DNA from: Thermodesulfobacteriota bacterium
Lineage (GTDB): Bacteria > Desulfobacterota_D > UBA1144 > Nemesobacterales > CSP1-2
Direction: 5' to 3'
NCBI GenBank assembly: GCA_049682815.1
Contig: JBAUII010000078.1
Location: forward strand, 37,763 to 101,762
Length of the DNA: 64,000 bases
The position numbers and the translations under genes are program-made. Positions 5,484-30,102 of this stretch are shown here, in pieces (the first letter of the stretch is position 1; each line of letters starts with the position of its first letter). The notes beneath the pieces are model-generated. The model was given only the letters and a program-made list of their open reading frames with translations, searched no databases and was not told the origin of the DNA.

Positions 5484-5692
5484 GCTCTTCCCTCTTGTTT
5501 AAAGAATTTTTTTAGCCACAAAATAAGTCTTGACTCCTGGGGGAAGGAGTATCCGCATCTCGGGCAGCAGACCAACAGGCAGTCTCCTATACTTATCTGG
5601 CAGCTTATGCATCTTTCCCTTCCCTCTTCCTTATAAAATTCCTCTCCACACAAGGGGCAGGAGATTAGATTCCGAGGCTCCACAGTATCCAA
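5480..5692 (-). CDS. Small Cys-rich zinc-ribbon protein, possible Feo accessory
   Basis: The 70-aa ORF carries CPLC..CISC..CCPRC. It overlaps the feoB 3' end by 28 nt and the dtxR start by 4 nt. No RBS was evaluated, so confidence is low. Confidence 0.4.
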   Translation of the reverse strand: MDTVEPRNLISCPLCGEEFYKEEGRERCISCQISIGDCLLVCCPRCGYSFPQESRLILWLKKFFKQEGRA

Positions 5693-7629
5693 TTCGTCAT
5701 ACCTCCCACAATAATGGCTATGAAAAGAACTATCGCGACTATAATAAGGGCGGTTCTGAGCCCTTGTTCCTTTATAATGATTAGAAAGTTGGCAACACAG
5801 GGGACAAATAGCGTAATCGTAACAAGACTTACTAAAACCTGATGGCTGCTCAAGTATCCGCCCTGTTGAAGATCGAAAAGACCGGCAGCACCGTAGTCTC
5901 TTCTCAGGAATCCGATTAAAAAGGCATTCGTAGCCTCTTTGGGAAGGTCAAGGAATTTTACTACGACCGGTGAAGCCAGATTTTGTAAAAATCCAAGAAC
6001 CTTTAACCTATCCAAGACAAAAAGAATTATCGTTCCCAAGACAAACAGTGGGACCGCTTCTTTCAAATACCATTCGAGTCTCGCAACAGTCTTAATGATT
6101 ACGTTACCAATCTGTGGAATCCTTATGGGCGGAACCTCAATGATAAGATCTCGGCTTTCTCCTTTTACGAAGTAAGAAGCAAGGAAGCCAACTGTAAAAA
6201 GAACAATACAAATTTCTACCCCCCAAAAGAAAATACCCCACCGAGGTAGAGTAGAAGCCATAGCAAACACCACAGCCAGCTGGGCCGAGCACGGGATTCC
6301 TACAGCCAGAAGAAATATCACAATTAGCCTTTCCTTTTTCGTCTCGAGCATCCTAGTGGTAAGGGTTGCCATTGTGTCACATCCCAGCCCCAGTACCATC
6401 GGGAGTACAACTTTTCCATTTAGACCCATTAACTTAAACACCCTGTCAACCATAATGGCCAGCCTTGGGAGGTATCCGGAATCTTCGAGGATACTAAAAA
6501 AGATGAAAAATGTGCAGATTACGGGAAAGATTATTGCGAGCGAGTATGTCAGCGCCATAGTAATTATTCCAAAATCGCCTACGAGAAAATCAATCAATAT
6601 CTTGTAGGGAATAATCTTGGGTATGGCTATTTTAAAAAAGGGGTTTATATATCCTTCAAAGACGGTTACCTCCAAGAAATCAACGAATGTTCCTGCCCCC
6701 AGTTTTCCCACAAAGAGGTATGCGAGGTAAAGTATTAGAATTAATATAGGGATCCCAAATAGAGGATGAGTCGATGTCCGTCCTAAAAGATCCAGGGTTC
6801 GGTTGTCTGATTTAAAAGAAGGAGTTGATACCTTCTGAACGATTTCTCTTGCGAGCTCAAGCCTCTTCAGACCGATGAAATAGCTTATAGGATATTCCCT
6901 GGAGCCGAGCTTTGAGAGTGGATCAAGTCCGGCAATCGAGTCTAGCTTTTCTTTAGGAATTCTGCTAATAATGTTCTCATCCATGTTGCAGTCGCCTGAT
7001 ACAATAGAAAGACCTATAAATCTTGAGAAATGAGGGTTTGATAGAATTTTTTTCATTTCGTCTAACATTCCTTCTATAGCTTGAGAGTAAGAAACTCTCA
7101 GTTGAGGGATAGTCGAATTTACAAGTTCGTTCTTAATTCCTTCTATTCCTTTTCTTTCGATAGCCACAGTCGGAACGATAGGAACCCCAAGTTTCTGAGA
7201 GAGCTTTGCTATGTTAATGTCGACTCCTCTGTGTTGCGCTTCATCCATCATATTCAACACTATGAGTAGGGGAAGTCCCATTTCTGCAATCTGGGTTGTT
7301 ATATACAGACCCCTCTCCAGGTTTTTAGCGTCTATAACCTGAATTATAAAGTTAGCTTCACCTTCTAATAAAATATTTCTAACAACCCTTTCGTCTTCCG
7401 ACGTCGGCGTCAGGCTATTAATCCCGGGCGTATCGATAAGAGAAATCGTTTCTGACCCGATTTTCATCTCTCCCGAGGTTATCTCGACCGTTGTTCCGGG
7501 ATAATTTGAAACCGTAACGTATCTCTTGGTAAGCGAACCAAAGAGTAAGCTCTTTCCGACATTTGGGTTACCAATTAGAGCAGCCTTCTTTGGATGAGCC
7601 GGGTTCTCAGACTTGGTTTTGTTAAACAT
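5665..7629 (-). CDS. feoB: Ferrous iron transporter FeoB (G-protein domain plus membrane permease)
   Basis: The N-terminal GTPase has G1 GNPNVGKS and a DTPG motif. Long polytopic C-terminal domain; 654 aa. Confidence 0.9.
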   Translation of the reverse strand: MFNKTKSENPAHPKKAALIGNPNVGKSLLFGSLTKRYVTVSNYPGTTVEITSGEMKIGSETISLIDTPGINSLTPTSEDERVVRNILLEGEANFIIQVIDAKNLERGLYITTQIAEMGLPLLIVLNMMDEAQHRGVDINIAKLSQKLGVPIVPTVAIERKGIEGIKNELVNSTIPQLRVSYSQAIEGMLDEMKKILSNPHFSRFIGLSIVSGDCNMDENIISRIPKEKLDSIAGLDPLSKLGSREYPISYFIGLKRLELAREIVQKVSTPSFKSDNRTLDLLGRTSTHPLFGIPILILILYLAYLFVGKLGAGTFVDFLEVTVFEGYINPFFKIAIPKIIPYKILIDFLVGDFGIITMALTYSLAIIFPVICTFFIFFSILEDSGYLPRLAIMVDRVFKLMGLNGKVVLPMVLGLGCDTMATLTTRMLETKKERLIVIFLLAVGIPCSAQLAVVFAMASTLPRWGIFFWGVEICIVLFTVGFLASYFVKGESRDLIIEVPPIRIPQIGNVIIKTVARLEWYLKEAVPLFVLGTIILFVLDRLKVLGFLQNLASPVVVKFLDLPKEATNAFLIGFLRRDYGAAGLFDLQQGGYLSSHQVLVSLVTITLFVPCVANFLIIIKEQGLRTALIIVAIVLFIAIIVGGMTNWILWSLGI

Positions 7630-26010: not shown

Positions 26011-26490
26011 TTAATCTGTAGCGCCCTTTGTTTGATTGGTGAGGTAATTCTCGAGACCCATCTGCCCGATTTGCTCACGTTGCATTTCTGCCCAATCCAC
26101 ATGATCCTCTTCCATCTTGAGAATGCGGGTCAACAGGTCAACACTGCTCTGGTCACCCACTTCGTGCGCCAGGGCGATGGCATCATTGTAAGCATGCACG
26201 GCTGCAAGTTCAGCATCCTGGTCGCCCGTAATAATTTCAAGGACAGTTGTGCCGACTTTGATCGGATTGAGCTTTGAGACAATCGGTGTGCCCTCTAGAA
26301 AGAGGATACGCTGGATAAGCCACTCAGCGTGGTGCATCTCGTCCTTTGCTTGTCCCTCAATGGCCTTGTGGAGCTTATCATAGCCCCAATTGTCGCACAT
26401 CTCCGAGTGCACCATGTATTGATTGATTGCAGTGAGCTCATCCGCGAGGAGTTGGTTGAGCACTGCCAGTAACTTTTCGTTGCCTTTCAT
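26011..26490 (-). CDS. bfr: Bacterioferritin
   Basis: MKGNEKLLAVLNQLLADELTAINQYMVHSEM... is typical of Bfr. The start is assigned to the ATG preceded by the AAGGAAGG RBS rather than the longer track ORF. Confidence 0.85.
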   Translation of the reverse strand: MKGNEKLLAVLNQLLADELTAINQYMVHSEMCDNWGYDKLHKAIEGQAKDEMHHAEWLIQRILFLEGTPIVSKLNPIKVGTTVLEIITGDQDAELAAVHAYNDAIALAHEVGDQSSVDLLTRILKMEEDHVDWAEMQREQIGQMGLENYLTNQTKGATD

Positions 26491-26559
26491 TTTTTTCCTT
26501 CCTTTATAAGTTGGAGTATCTGTCAAACATAGCATGAGACCAATGACAAAGTCAAAAGG

Positions 26560-26683
26560 GGTACGAAAAAAAATTGTGTAACAGCGCGTCGAGAAACTTC
26601 TCCCCGACGACTTTATTGAGGATCAAGTTCGTAAGACAATAAGGCGCGAGCACTACTCTTTTCGTACCGAAAAGAGTTATTTG
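26560..26683 (+). promoter_or_regulatory. Structured leader/attenuator-like element. A hairpin CTCTTTTCG-tac-CGAAAAGAG plus TTATTTG competes with long-range pairing GGTACGAAAA(26560-69)/TTTTCGTACC(26659-68). There is also a nested stem CGTCGAGAA..TTCTCCCCGACG.
   Basis: The complementarities are read directly. The two helices share the segment TTTTCGTACC and so are mutually exclusive. The element sits in the divergent bfr / rcnR-like intergenic region. Confidence 0.3.
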
Positions 26684-26795
26684 ACCTGAAAGAATGGAAA
26701 AAGGGGAGCATCCCCATTAATTTCGCACTCTTTCTCGTCATCGTACTTCGACTAGCCTGTACTGATTATGATCGAAGTGCTCAGTATAGACTCCA

Positions 26796-26940
26796 CTGTG
26801 GCGATCTCCTGCCTATCTGTTAAGGGACTAGGTTACTTAGACGAAATGAAACAAATGGACGAGAGGGATGAAGGTCAGGATAATTCAGAAAATACTGGGA
26901 AAGAAAAACAAAAATAACTCATTTGTTCATGCCTGACCCC
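26796..26940 (+). repeat. Repeat family copy B (3' two-thirds clearly conserved; the 5' part is degenerate)
   Basis: ctgtggcgatctcct..ctagg.tactt.gacgaa..aaaaacaaaaataactcatttgttcatgcctgacccc aligns with copy A. Confidence 0.7.
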
Positions 26941-27021
26941 CTGCCCATTCATTTAGTTTGACAGCATTCCTAGCAAAGCAGATTTCCTCTATTTGCTTCT
27001 TAATCCATTGAGAAATATACC

Positions 27022-27033
27022 ATACCGGGGTAT
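27022..27033. promoter_or_regulatory. Candidate CsoR/RcnR-type operator ATACCGGGGTAT (a G/C tract flanked by TAC/GTA inverted arms), overlapping a TATATT -10-like hexamer
   Basis: Read directly, 40-50 nt upstream of the RcnR/CsoR-family gene. It resembles the known architecture of CsoR/RcnR operators. A second GGGG tract lies at 27041-27044. Confidence 0.4.
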
Positions 27034-27074
27034 ATTATCAGGGGACACGGAACTACCAAGATGGAGAGAGAATA

Positions 27075-27353
27075 ATGGCTCATACAATCAGGGACAAAAA
27101 GAAGCTTATAAATCGAGTGCGACGTATCCGCGGTCAAGTCGAAAGCATCGAGAGGGCTCTTGAGGAAGAAAAGGATTGCTCAATTATCCTTCAGAGTATT
27201 GCTGCATGTCGTGGTGCGATTAACGGACTAATGGCCGAGATTCTGGAAGGTCACATCCGTTTCCATGTGTTCGATCCTGATCAAAACCCGACCTCAGAAC
27301 AATCTAAGGCCGCACAAGAAATAATTGATGTAGTAAAAACCTACTTAAAATAG
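27075..27353 (+). CDS. CsoR/RcnR/FrmR-family metal-sensing repressor with an RcnR-like W-X-Y-Z fingerprint H3-C35-H60-H64
   Basis: 92 aa with a helical DUF156-like pattern. His at position 3 (MAH), Cys35 (KDCS) and His60/His64 (EGHIRFH). Confidence 0.8.
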   Translation: MAHTIRDKKKLINRVRRIRGQVESIERALEEEKDCSIILQSIAACRGAINGLMAEILEGHIRFHVFDPDQNPTSEQSKAAQEIIDVVKTYLK

Positions 27354-27395
27354 ACCTATGACACCGTAAGGAGATTCATAAAAGAACAAAAGGCG

Positions 27396-29336
27396 GTGAT
27401 AACAAAAATGGATACTGATCCGGGAGTGGACATTCATCCAAAGCTCAAGAAAGAAAACAATTCAGTCGATGCGTACGACATTAAGCATGGAGAACACAAT
27501 CATATAGAATGGGTAGATCTGACTCGAATCGGCTTCGTCGCACTTGGGATTGTTGCAAGTTGGTTAGGACTTTGGAAGGGATTTACGAGCTTTGACGTGA
27601 TTAGCCTTGTGGCAACACTAATAGGTGGCTATCCGATCTTTCGGGAGGCAATCGCGTCTCTCATCTCCAGGCGGATGACGATGGAACTCTCTATGACCAT
27701 TGCTCTAGGAGCGGCTTTAGCCATTGGTGAGTTCTTCACCGCTTTGGTAATTGTGCTCTTTGTGCTGATCGCCGAAGTGTTAGAGAATCTTACTGTCAGC
27801 CGAGGCAGGGGTGCAATCAAAGATCTTCTTGAACTGTTGCCTCAGAGTGCTACTATCCGTCGCGAAGGCCAAGTGCAAGAGGTTCGTACTACTGAGATTC
27901 AAGCGGGTGATAGCGTCATCATAAAGCCTGGCAGTCGAATTCCAGTGGATGGGGTTGTTATCCGTGGAAACTCCTTTGTAGACCAATCTACTATCACCGG
28001 TGAATCGATGCCTGTAGAGAAGGTGAAAGGCTCACAGGTCTATGCCGGAACGATTAATCAATCGGGCTTGCTTGAGGTCCGACCGGTCAAACTCGGTCGA
28101 GATACCGCGTTCGGGAAGGTCATCCAGGCAGTTGAACAGGCTGAAAAGTCCCGTGCACCAATCCAAAAAACTGCCGACCGACTCGCAGGATACCTAGTCT
28201 ACTTTGCCATTATCTGTGCTGCGCTCACTTTCCTCGTTACACGCGATATGCGCTCTACTATCTCAGTTATCATCGTTGCTGGTGCATGCGGAATTGCAGC
28301 AGGTACTCCACTCGCTATCCTTGGTGCCATTGGCCGTGCCGCCCGCAACGGAACTATCGTCAAGGGTGGACTGTATATGGAAATCTTAAGTGTCATAGAC
28401 ACTGTTCCTTTGGACAAGACGGGCACATTGACATTCGGAAACCCAGAAGTTACCAATGTGTATCCGCGTAATGGAGCGACGACCCAGGCCGTTTTGGAAG
28501 CTGCAGCCATTGCTGAACGGTGTTCGGAACATATTTTAGGTAAAGCTATATTAAAGAAAGCCTCTGAAATATCCCTTTCTATCGCTGAACCAGAACGGTT
28601 TGAGTATATTCCAGGTAAAGGCATTATCTGCTCGCTCAACGGAGAAGAAATTATCGTTGGTAATCGGAGTCTTTTTGTGGAAAAACACTTTGATATCGAT
28701 GAGTTTGCAGGCACTTCTGACCATCTGTCGGAAGTGCTTGTTGCCCGTGATGGACAATTCCTCGGTACTCTGCAGATTTCGGACGTGCTGCGCCCGGAAG
28801 CTGTGGAGGCGGTACGCATGCTTCGAGAAATGGGCATAAGAACCATACTTTTGACTGGTGACTCAAAGGCTATCGCTCACGCAGTTGGAAATGAGCTTGG
28901 TGTGGACGAGATATTTGCTGAACTCCTTCCAGATCAGAAACTCAACAAAGTGAAGTCACTTATCCTAGAGGGAAAGAAGGTTGCCATGGTAGGCGACGGG
29001 ATTAATGATGCTCCGGCATTGATGCAGGCGAGTGTTGGTGTTGCAATAGGCTCTGGGACAGACATTGCAAGGGAGAGCTCAAATGTCCTGCTTATAGGCA
29101 ACGATCTTCTCAAATTCGTGGAGGTACTCAGGATTGCCAGGCAGTGCCATCGGATCATTATGACAAACTTCGCAGGGACTTTGCTTGTAGACGGAGTAGG
29201 TGTTGGGCTTGCCGCTTTTGGACTACTGAGTCCCCTCCTCGCGGCTTTCATCCATGTTTTCTCGGAACTTGTGTTTATCCTGAACTCGGCGAGAATGCTC
29301 CCTAGGAAGTGCGTGGGGTCAGGCGTGAATAAATGA
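27396..29336 (+). CDS. P1B-type heavy-metal-translocating P-type ATPase, with no N-terminal HMA domain, a His-rich N-terminus and a non-canonical TM motif
   Basis: TGES, DKTGTLT and GDGINDAPAL motifs. About 8 TM helices. The N-terminus has HGEHNH. The canonical CPC/SPC position reads AGACG (no proline). Confidence 0.85.
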   Translation: MITKMDTDPGVDIHPKLKKENNSVDAYDIKHGEHNHIEWVDLTRIGFVALGIVASWLGLWKGFTSFDVISLVATLIGGYPIFREAIASLISRRMTMELSMTIALGAALAIGEFFTALVIVLFVLIAEVLENLTVSRGRGAIKDLLELLPQSATIRREGQVQEVRTTEIQAGDSVIIKPGSRIPVDGVVIRGNSFVDQSTITGESMPVEKVKGSQVYAGTINQSGLLEVRPVKLGRDTAFGKVIQAVEQAEKSRAPIQKTADRLAGYLVYFAIICAALTFLVTRDMRSTISVIIVAGACGIAAGTPLAILGAIGRAARNGTIVKGGLYMEILSVIDTVPLDKTGTLTFGNPEVTNVYPRNGATTQAVLEAAAIAERCSEHILGKAILKKASEISLSIAEPERFEYIPGKGIICSLNGEEIIVGNRSLFVEKHFDIDEFAGTSDHLSEVLVARDGQFLGTLQISDVLRPEAVEAVRMLREMGIRTILLTGDSKAIAHAVGNELGVDEIFAELLPDQKLNKVKSLILEGKKVAMVGDGINDAPALMQASVGVAIGSGTDIARESSNVLLIGNDLLKFVEVLRIARQCHRIIMTNFAGTLLVDGVGVGLAAFGLLSPLLAAFIHVFSELVFILNSARMLPRKCVGSGVNK

Positions 29337-29532
29337 GTTATTTTTGTTTTTGTTCCCCGCGATTTCTTTGAAGCGTCCTTCCTATTTCCCGTCCCATCAA
29401 TTTTTTCCCTGTTGGCTTTCCTCTTTTCGTTTGAGGATCCTAACACTTGAAGAAATAAAAAGGAGATTGACACAGGGCTTCGCCCTTCGCAATGACCTCT
29501 CTATGGATTCCCGATAACAATCCTCGGGGGAT
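29321..29532 (-). repeat. Repeat family copy C (inverted relative to A and B). Its terminus overlaps the last 6 codons and the stop of the ATPase gene.
   Basis: The reverse complement aligns with copy A at both ends. ggggtcaggcgtgaataaatga encodes GSGVNK-stop of the ATPase. Confidence 0.75.
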
Positions 29533-29598
29533 GACCGTAGAAGAGAATAGGTGCTATTAAATTTATAGAAAAAAGCAATGGTCACGCTTTTCCCGGAA

Positions 29599-30102
29599 TC
29601 AAATGAAAAATATTAAAAAGCGAATGATTACATATGCCAGAAATCCCAATACAGAAATAAGGATTGCTCTAGATGTCTCACAGTCGAGTGCTTGCCTTAT
29701 TGCAACTATGAAGGTTAGAAATACCCAAATCGACGTAATATAGGGAACGAAATGTCCAATAAATGGCAACAGCATAAAAATGTTTAAAATACCGGGTGAA
29801 TAAGCGAAGCCTAGGCATCTGAGGAGTTCCCCCAGATCTGAAGAATGCCCAAACCCCCTGACTCCGATAACATAAATTATGACACTCCATAAGACCCAGG
29901 CTATAATTGAAGATACTACGCCAGTTATTATGCCCATTGAGCCCGATATACCAATCATTCCTATTCCATTGCTTATTGAAACAAGTAGTACAGCGAGGAA
30001 GGCTTCTTTTGTAGCAGCTGGGTCGCGCTCAACCTCATCGTAAAGGTTTATATCAAGTTTTGAAGCGGCGATCATTCTTCTTATGAGATCCATTGTAGTC
30101 AA
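29599..30102 (-). CDS. Yip1-domain family membrane protein
   Basis: 167 aa with 4-5 TM helices and a Yip1/DUF1282-like pattern. Confidence 0.55.
   Translation of the reverse strand: MTTMDLIRRMIAASKLDINLYDEVERDPAATKEAFLAVLLVSISNGIGMIGISGSMGIITGVVSSIIAWVLWSVIIYVIGVRGFGHSSDLGELLRCLGFAYSPGILNIFMLLPFIGHFVPYITSIWVFLTFIVAIRQALDCETSRAILISVLGFLAYVIIRFLIFFI

Follow-up and report, generated by a model that had tools for sequence, protein, structure and literature searches.

Which metal is handled by a P-type ATPase that lacks the otherwise conserved membrane proline, when its gene lies directly behind that of a small repressor with the look of a metal sensor? The question is raised by positions 27,022 to 29,336 of a 64,000-nucleotide stretch of contig JBAUII010000078.1 (GCA_049682815.1), from a metagenome-assembled genome (MAG) of a Thermodesulfobacteriota bacterium; this whole stretch is called the window below. 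Both genes are on the forward strand. The first (27075..27353) encodes a 92-residue repressor of the CsoR/RcnR family, and the second encodes a P1B ATPase that ends at 29336 and begins either at a GTG (27396; 646 residues) or at an ATG (27408; 642 residues), the latter being the start that NCBI annotates for an identical Thermodesulfobacteriota MAG protein (P0001). The genes are separated by 42–54 nt, and no terminator-like site was found on the forward strand in this gap. We read the locus as a two-gene, self-repressed metal-efflux operon in which a DmeR/RcnR-type repressor controls a P1B exporter, most likely of Ni(II)/Co(II), and we place the probability of this reading at roughly 0.65. The pump belongs to what is apparently an undescribed, large, and widespread P1B subgroup, here called the GAC clade. 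A first-pass annotation, which described a proline-less P1B pump behind a Ni/Co-type repressor and its G-tract operator, was largely right.

The repressor matches the Pfam family PF02583 (Trns_repr_metal) with an E-value of 1.3e-24 and a score of 86.8 bits, where 22.8 would suffice. It is 40% identical to E. coli RcnR and aligns with it without a gap through residue 68, with M1, H3, C35, H60, and H64 in invariant columns. The W-X-Y-Z fingerprint proposed in the first-pass annotation, His3 (27081-83), Cys35 (27177-79), His60 (27252-54), and His64 (27264-66), is therefore in register with E. coli RcnR, as it is with repressors linked to dmeF, and the misalignment that could have overturned it did not occur. 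Both RcnR and DmeR employ these H-C-H-H residues for Ni/Co (PMC7055735, PMC6044271). Residue 2 is a small alanine, which would permit removal of the initiator methionine and leave a free N-terminal amine beside His3. Other residues of interest are D34, C45, and F63.

The metal assignment is one that we infer from the sensor class and from the relatives of the repressor that are linked to dmeF. A tblastn search of a plasmid collection returned repressors outside the GAC pairing that are 53–64% identical to the window repressor, and in five of five opened loci such a repressor adjoins dmeF, annotated as a CDF-family Co(II)/Ni(II) exporter, which backs the Ni/Co assignment made earlier. S. meliloti DmeR carries His3/Cys35/His60/His64, and the sensitivity of a S. 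meliloti dmeF mutant is limited to Co and Ni (PMC6044271). Given that the closest homologues outside the GAC pairing adjoin dmeF and that S. meliloti DmeR has the same four residues, the repressor is best described as DmeR-like.

The pairing is not peculiar to the window. Upstream sequence sufficed for the comparison at 75 related loci, and in 57 of these, across about a dozen phyla, a CsoR/RcnR-family gene of 90–92 codons lies directly 5' of the pump on the same strand; this count includes three loci (L019, L026, and L059) with an over-extended ATPase open reading frame (ORF). The same arrangement was seen in three of three metagenome loci. A fixed-register scan of the linked repressors gave 60 candidates, one of them spurious, and 53 of the 59 left carry H-C-H-H. 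The remainder comprise two H-C-Q-H, one H-C-F-H, two replacements of C35 that are each seen on a single contig, and one register shift. Residue 2 is A, S, G, or T in nearly all 59. No other gene was consistently linked to the pump among the 83 related loci compared.

Upstream of the repressor gene, a putative DmeR/RcnR-type operator, ATA-CC-ATA-CCGGGG-TAT-AT-TAT (27017..27038, given without strand), was recognized by its motif layout and conservation. Its core is the dyad TACC-N7-GGTA (TACC-ATACCGG-GGTA) at 27018-27032, where a G/C tract lies between TACT/AGTA-like inverted arms as in type-1 operators. The G-tract dyad that had been noted just upstream, ATACCGGGGTAT at 27022-27033, is present as claimed and forms part of this larger conserved element. 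The assignment to the G/C-tract operator type also held, as the core has the same 4+7+4 TACY-N7-RGTA layout as the E. coli MG1655 PrcnA sites TACTGGGGGGTAGTA and TACTGGGGGGGAGTA, a layout shared by the S. meliloti dmeRF box (PMC6044271). A sigma-70-like promoter on the forward strand (27008..27036) consists of a -35 TTGAGA (27008-27013), a 17-nt spacer, and a -10 TATATT (27031-27036); it agrees at 10 of 12 positions and is the top promoter-like match in 26500-29700, as a consensus match only. The operator lies in the stretch between these two boxes and overlaps the -10. In most related loci, TACY-N6-8-RGTA with a G/C tract is found 28–66 nt before the ATG of the regulator, an arrangement kept across phyla, and in several Acidobacteria the operator is the exact reverse complement of an E. 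coli PrcnA site. Across the 64 kb of the window, ATACY-N7-RGTAT is found at two places, where 0.12 would be expected; the second occurrence, at 5-21, was rejected as an operator, being without a G/C tract and having no adjoining gene.

From these features a mechanism can be proposed. The metal-free, tetrameric repressor would bind the TACC-N7-GGTA G/C-tract operator and, because this lies between the -35 and the -10 and overlaps the -10, would block RNA polymerase. By analogy with characterized relatives, rising cytosolic Ni(II)/Co(II) would place the metal at the N-terminal amine/His3, Asp34-Cys35, His60, and His64; the metal-bound repressor would then leave the DNA, and both genes would be transcribed from the one promoter. 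The pump would export the metal through the usual E1/E2 phospho-enzyme cycle, with a predicted membrane site made of Cys298, the sole thiolate in a glycine-rich and proline-free M4, together with Asp599 in M5 and His620, Ser623, and Glu624 in M6, and a His-rich N-terminus would take the place of an HMA domain. Both the outward direction of transport and this set of ligands are what we infer from the motifs of the pump.

The ATPase scores 543.6 bits against TIGR01525 (cut-off 346) and has E1-E2 and HAD domains with eight predicted transmembrane helices (MA, MB, and M1-M6). Its catalytic motifs DKTGT (28413..28427, forward strand, as are all motifs of the pump; invariant in the family), TGES, and GDGINDAP are intact. 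As described in the first-pass annotation, it gave no match to an HMA domain in Pfam and NCBIfam profile searches and has a His-rich stretch, H-G-E-H-N-H, at residues 31-36 (27486..27503); the N-termini of GAC homologues are likewise His-rich but variable. The M4 motif, V-A-G-A-C-G-I-A-A-G-T-P (28275..28310), reads G296-A297-C298 (28281-28289) where CPC would be expected, and neither a CPx nor an xPC motif with the M4 proline is present. The phmmer alignment to A. fulgidus CopA pairs 'vacpcafglatp' with 'vagacgiaagtp' free of gaps, so that no indel restores xPC and the reported loss of the proline stands. GAC followed by G(I/V)AAGTP was found in all 120 of the best database homologues (65–91% identity), which come from MAGs labelled Planctomycetota, Chloracidobacterium, Tectomicrobia, Gemmataceae, and others.

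Three further membrane motifs set the pump apart. In M1, R-R-M-T-M-E-L-S-M-T-I-A (27669..27704, residues 92-103) is invariant among 20 diverse members and is also kept in distant GAC representatives. V598-D599 in M5 (29187..29192), invariant in the family, puts an Asp where CopA and other P1B-1 pumps have the 'YN' Asn and where P1B-2 pumps have the ZntA-type counter-ion Lys. M6 reads H620-V-F-S623-E624 (29253..29267), with H, S, and E invariant, and its His corresponds to H657 of sCoaT (P1B-4) and D714 of ZntA (P1B-2). Asp599 and His620 occupy the positions of ZntA Lys693 and Asp714, so that M5 presents an acid where ZntA has a base. These M5 and M6 correspondences come from pairwise mapping onto representatives; HEGST, DMGxS, and MxxSS align at M6 (PMC8880997). 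In the N-domain, the window ATPase reads S-E-H-I (28524-28535) in place of SEHP, the His being kept and the Pro lost. This variant was limited to the window ATPase and its two closest relatives (P0002 and P0004), and all other clade members retain His-Pro.

An AF2 model built from 120 sequences (predicted local distance difference test, pLDDT, 80.4; predicted template-modelling score, pTM, 0.71) has an eight-helix P1B membrane domain. In this model the M4 helix is broken at A-C-G-I-A-A, the segment normally unwound by proline, with a local pLDDT of ~ 59–68. A model from 20 sequences (pLDDT 68.8, below 50 in the M4 region) was set aside as too poor. The best Foldseek match was 7r0g (template-modelling score 0.71), and CopA, ZntA, and sCoaT structures were returned alike, as they were among the best phmmer matches in the PDB. 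The modelled fold is that of a P1B pump; this generic fold identifies no subgroup.

A scan with the M4 fragment, taking one genome per species, found the GAC pump in at least 577 genomes. The matches listed include Acidobacteriota, Gemmatimonadota, Planctomycetota, Ignavibacteriota, Myxococcota, Binatia, Methylomirabilota, Obscuribacterales, and Pseudomonadota. Dyella lipolytica, Oleiagrimonas, and Allopusillimonas ginsengisoli are cultured hosts, and plasmid copies occur in Methylorubrum extorquens AM1, Rhodanobacter denitrificans, Novosphingobium pentaromativorans, Xanthobacter autotrophicus Py2, and Bosea. The membrane helices are near-invariant in the clade: M1 reads RRMTMELSMTIA, M2 has the near-invariant E127 and E130, and the consensus is I-S-V-x-I-V-A-G-A-C-G-x-A-A-G-T-P-L-A in M4, N-F-x-G-T-x-x-V-D in M5, and P-x-x-A-A-x-I-H-V-x-S-E-x-x-F-I-x-N-S in M6. 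In an exhaustive search of representatives at 50% identity, the clade reached down to ~ 40% identity with the signature retained. The next-best sequences beyond it were CPC types with HQxSS or HNxGS in M6, CSC/QSLPD types, and SPC/HEGST types. In a neighbour-joining (NJ) tree of 127 core sequences, computed without bootstrap and hence taken as moderate evidence, the GAC clade is monophyletic, deep, and apart from the SPC/HEGST sequences; these fall together with the P1B-2 type.

The first-pass annotation called the pump a non-canonical P1B type, and its own signature and clade bear this out; the further suggestion that it is closest to P1B-4 did not hold up. P1B-4 pumps are defined by SPC in M4 and HEGxT in M6 (PMC8880997), where the window pump has GAC and H-V-F-S-E; by motif only the M6 histidine is common, and the clade is not nested with SPC/HEGST sequences in the NJ tree. 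Neither do V-D and H-V-F-S-E match P1B-1 (CPC with YN/MxxSS) or P1B-2 (CPC with an M5 Lys and M6 DxG), and none of the P1B-5 PCP, P1B-6 D[Y/F]SCA with HNxxT, or P1B-7 CSC motifs is present in the pump (motifs from PMC13460109 and the ferrosome preprint). The M4 motifs named so far are CPC, CPH, SPC, PCP, SCA, and CSC, and GAC is not among them; the loss of the M4 proline has precedent, as SCA and CSC are also without it (PMC13460109; ferrosome preprint). Judged by its motifs, the membrane site of the pump differs from those of all named P1B subgroups, and no description of a GAC-type P1B clade was found in the searchable literature. We tentatively entertain a bolder proposal, which we consider possible and would not yet favour: the GAC clade may be an unnamed eighth P1B subfamily of dedicated Ni(II)/Co(II) pumps in which glycines break an M4 helix without proline and the site is formed by Cys (M4), Asp (M5), and His/Glu (M6), carried in a DmeR-controlled cassette that is mobile across at least a dozen phyla and replaces the CDF exporter DmeF.

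Two sequences mix features of the GAC clade and of P1B-4. P0264 (839 residues) is a P1B-4-type pump with HEGST in M6, yet has GAC in M4, apparently through an independent loss of the M4 proline. P0152 (792 residues), with SPC in M4 and clade-type M5 and M6, was considered as an intermediate to P1B-4 and rejected as a chimera: it is mostly P1B-4-like and reaches 70% identity to the GAC clade only over its last ~ 120 residues, which suggests either a recombinant or an assembly chimera.

The most serious competitor to Ni(II)/Co(II) efflux keeps the same architecture and changes the substrate to Zn(II)/Cd(II), Fe(II), or Mn(II), with the sensor retuned or the pump promiscuous like P1B-4; we consider it unlikely, at perhaps one chance among several. 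Several observations weigh against the Ni/Co reading or speak for this one. A FrmR scaffold carrying H-C-H-H (FrmR E64H) senses Co and Zn in cells (PMC4528141), and the fingerprint alone therefore leaves the metal unfixed. In E. coli RcnR, the Co(II) ligands are the N-terminal amine, His3, Glu34, Cys35, Glu63, and His64 (PMC7055735). Of the two carboxylates, Glu34 is conservatively replaced by Asp34 in the window repressor and position 63 is a Phe, so that, going by sequence, its coordination sphere cannot be identical to that of E. coli RcnR. Position 63 is variable, and Glu63 not conserved, in the clade of linked repressors, and the dmeF-linked repressors are likewise without Glu63. The score of the window repressor against the NCBIfam RcnR equivalog, 84.4 bits, falls below the cut-off of 138; by that standard of sequence it is no RcnR ortholog. 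About a quarter of the clade members have no repressor and instead have a TonB-receptor-like gene or a two-component system upstream. Cys/Asp/His/Glu ligands and a His-rich tail are diagnostic of no single metal, and neighbours such as Nramp (4–5 loci), ZIP (5), and ZitB-like CDF with CadR/ZntR-like MerR genes (5) would also fit Zn, Cd, Mn, or Fe, while a bacterioferritin gene (bfr) adjoins the module in the window. No experiment on any member of the GAC clade was found in the searchable literature.

What tips the balance toward Ni(II)/Co(II) is that the characterized H-C-H-H members, RcnR and DmeR, are all Ni/Co-responsive (PMC7055735, PMC6044271). The nearest homologues of the repressor are paired with dmeF, and bfr, Nramp, and ZIP are each confined to a small minority of loci. 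To our knowledge, no member of the CsoR family senses Fe or Mn. The adjacent bfr had been taken in the first-pass annotation as a hint of iron/cobalt handling, a suggestion that finds no support in the related loci: of the gene clusters that recur as neighbours in the 83 loci, none is a ferritin/bfr cluster.

A sensor of something other than metal, FrmR-like for formaldehyde or CstR-like for persulfide, beside an ATPase that is merely co-located and answers another cue, is very improbable. The window repressor does score higher against the NCBIfam FrmR equivalog (109.6 bits) than against RcnR, its best solved relatives in the PDB are FrmR structures, and about half of the linked-repressor clade shares its second cysteine, C45. 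Both equivalog scores are nevertheless under their cut-offs (133 for FrmR), and Z is a His rather than the Cys of CstR or CsoR. The formaldehyde chemistry of FrmR requires Pro2, which is cross-linked to Cys35. Residue 2 of the window repressor is Ala, and Pro2 occurs in only one of about 60 linked repressors, that of M. extorquens, while the partner at every locus is a metal pump. That the pair is of the Cu(I) CsoR-CopA type, with a pump that has degenerated, can hardly be credited: CsoR-family repressors classically precede copA and CopA structures head the PDB matches of the pump, but the fingerprint is H-C-H-H and not the x-C-H-C with Cys at Z of Cu(I) sensors, the pump is without CPC, M5 YN, M6 MxxSS, and HMA domain, the clade lies apart from P1B-1 sequences in the NJ tree, and the invariance of its membrane residues across phyla argues against decay.

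Set beside known systems, the Ni/Co efflux operon proposed here is close to the dmeRF Co/Ni efflux operons of Rhizobium, Agrobacterium, and Sinorhizobium. Besides the identity and the four fingerprint residues that the window repressor shares with repressors adjacent to dmeF, in both the exporter gene follows immediately behind that of the repressor, and a nested ATA-N2-RTA-(G/C)6-TAT-N2-TAT box lies over the -10 (PMC6044271); a DUF1289 gene often accompanies the module. The exporter is a CDF antiporter in dmeRF and a P1B ATPase, a primary pump, in the present operon, whose host is a Thermodesulfobacteriota MAG. E. coli RcnR-RcnA shares H-C-H-H, the N-terminal xH motif, and the TACT-G6-N-AGTA type-1 operator architecture. 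It differs in repressor sequence (40% identity, with Phe for Glu63), in having two sites rather than one, and in its divergent rather than co-directional genes, and its exporter, RcnA, is unrelated.

Among pumps, P1B-4 members (CoaT, CzcP, CtpD/J, PfeT; sCoaT 7qbz) likewise have no HMA domain, ~ 640–680 residues, and eight transmembrane helices, with a single M4 Cys at the SPC Cys position, the M6 His at the sCoaT H657 position, and overlapping predicted substrates (Co, Ni, Zn, Fe). The GAC pump is set off from them by an M4 without Pro and Ser, by H-V-x-S-E rather than H-E-G-x-T in M6, by the M5 Asp and M1 RRMTMELSM that are its own, by an identity of ~ 36–40%, and by its separate place in the tree. 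P1B-6 (D[Y/F]SCA, HNxxT; FezB, CtpC-like) and P1B-7 (CSC) resemble it in an M4 without proline and an M6 His or polar motif, and rank by score with the closest representatives outside the GAC clade; they have other M4/M5/M6 signatures, no M5 Asp, and separate clades in the NJ tree, and FezB-type genes belong to ferrosome clusters rather than following a DmeR-like repressor.

P1B classes and the metal predictions drawn from them rest on the M4, M5, and M6 motifs, and the GAC clade falls outside the seven named subgroups; its members, in hundreds of species, are annotated merely as 'cation-translocating P-type ATPase'. If the pump does carry Ni/Co, it would supply a signature by which Ni/Co-exporting P-type ATPases, so far poorly defined in sequence, could be recognized, and a natural test of the need for the M4 proline in unwinding the ion site. 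DmeR-type sensors would then be modular, able to control a P-type exporter as well as a CDF one. This bears on the annotation of metal resistance in metagenomes from soil, groundwater, and contaminated sites, with copies in Rhodanobacter, Dyella, Acidobacteria, and plasmids.

In the region of the module (26500-29500), its GC content is 0.47–0.50, against 0.37–0.43 in the flanks. Copies that are nearly identical turn up in the bins of two other MAGs, one labelled Spirochaetia and one 'Thermoproteota archaeon' (L006; P0002), and plasmid copies of the pump adjoin transposases, czcCBA, and HupE/UreJ. The GC contrast, the copies in other bins, and the plasmid copies by transposases together suggest horizontal transfer, or mis-binning, of the module.

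Neighbours seen at a minority of the related loci were TonB-receptor-like genes (22 loci), LytTR (20), CDF, ZIP, and MerR (5 each), and Nramp (4–5). In four loci without a repressor (L011 3691-6141, L029 3248-5449, L048 3294-6161, and L081 3713-6121), a large TonB-dependent-receptor-like gene lies directly 5' and co-oriented, an odd partner for an exporter. LytS/LytTR two-component genes were seen near the pump in ~ 20 mostly acidobacterial loci. A small DUF1289 gene recurs beside dmeR-dmeF modules and repressor-GAC-ATPase modules alike (L087 7955-8134, L086 5222-5440, L091 3784-3963, L092 3782-3994, and L093 4784-4978), and none was found in the window. On the M. extorquens AM1 plasmid p1META1 (L086), the GAC-linked repressor (5533-5811) combines the FrmR-like Pro2 with H-C-H-H, and a HupE/UreJ gene and the DUF1289 gene are close by.

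An Rfam search of the window gave no match, and positions 1-1830 hold no ORF of at least 100 residues on either strand and no Rfam match. Just 3' of the pump, on the opposite strand (29599-30102), lies a gene for a 167-residue predicted membrane protein that has no match in Pfam or NCBIfam. The bacterioferritin ORF on the other side of the module (26011-26535, reverse strand) is listed ~ 15 residues too long at its N-terminus, as the TIGR00754 match begins at residue 16, and its true start is probably the internal Met of MKGNEKLL.

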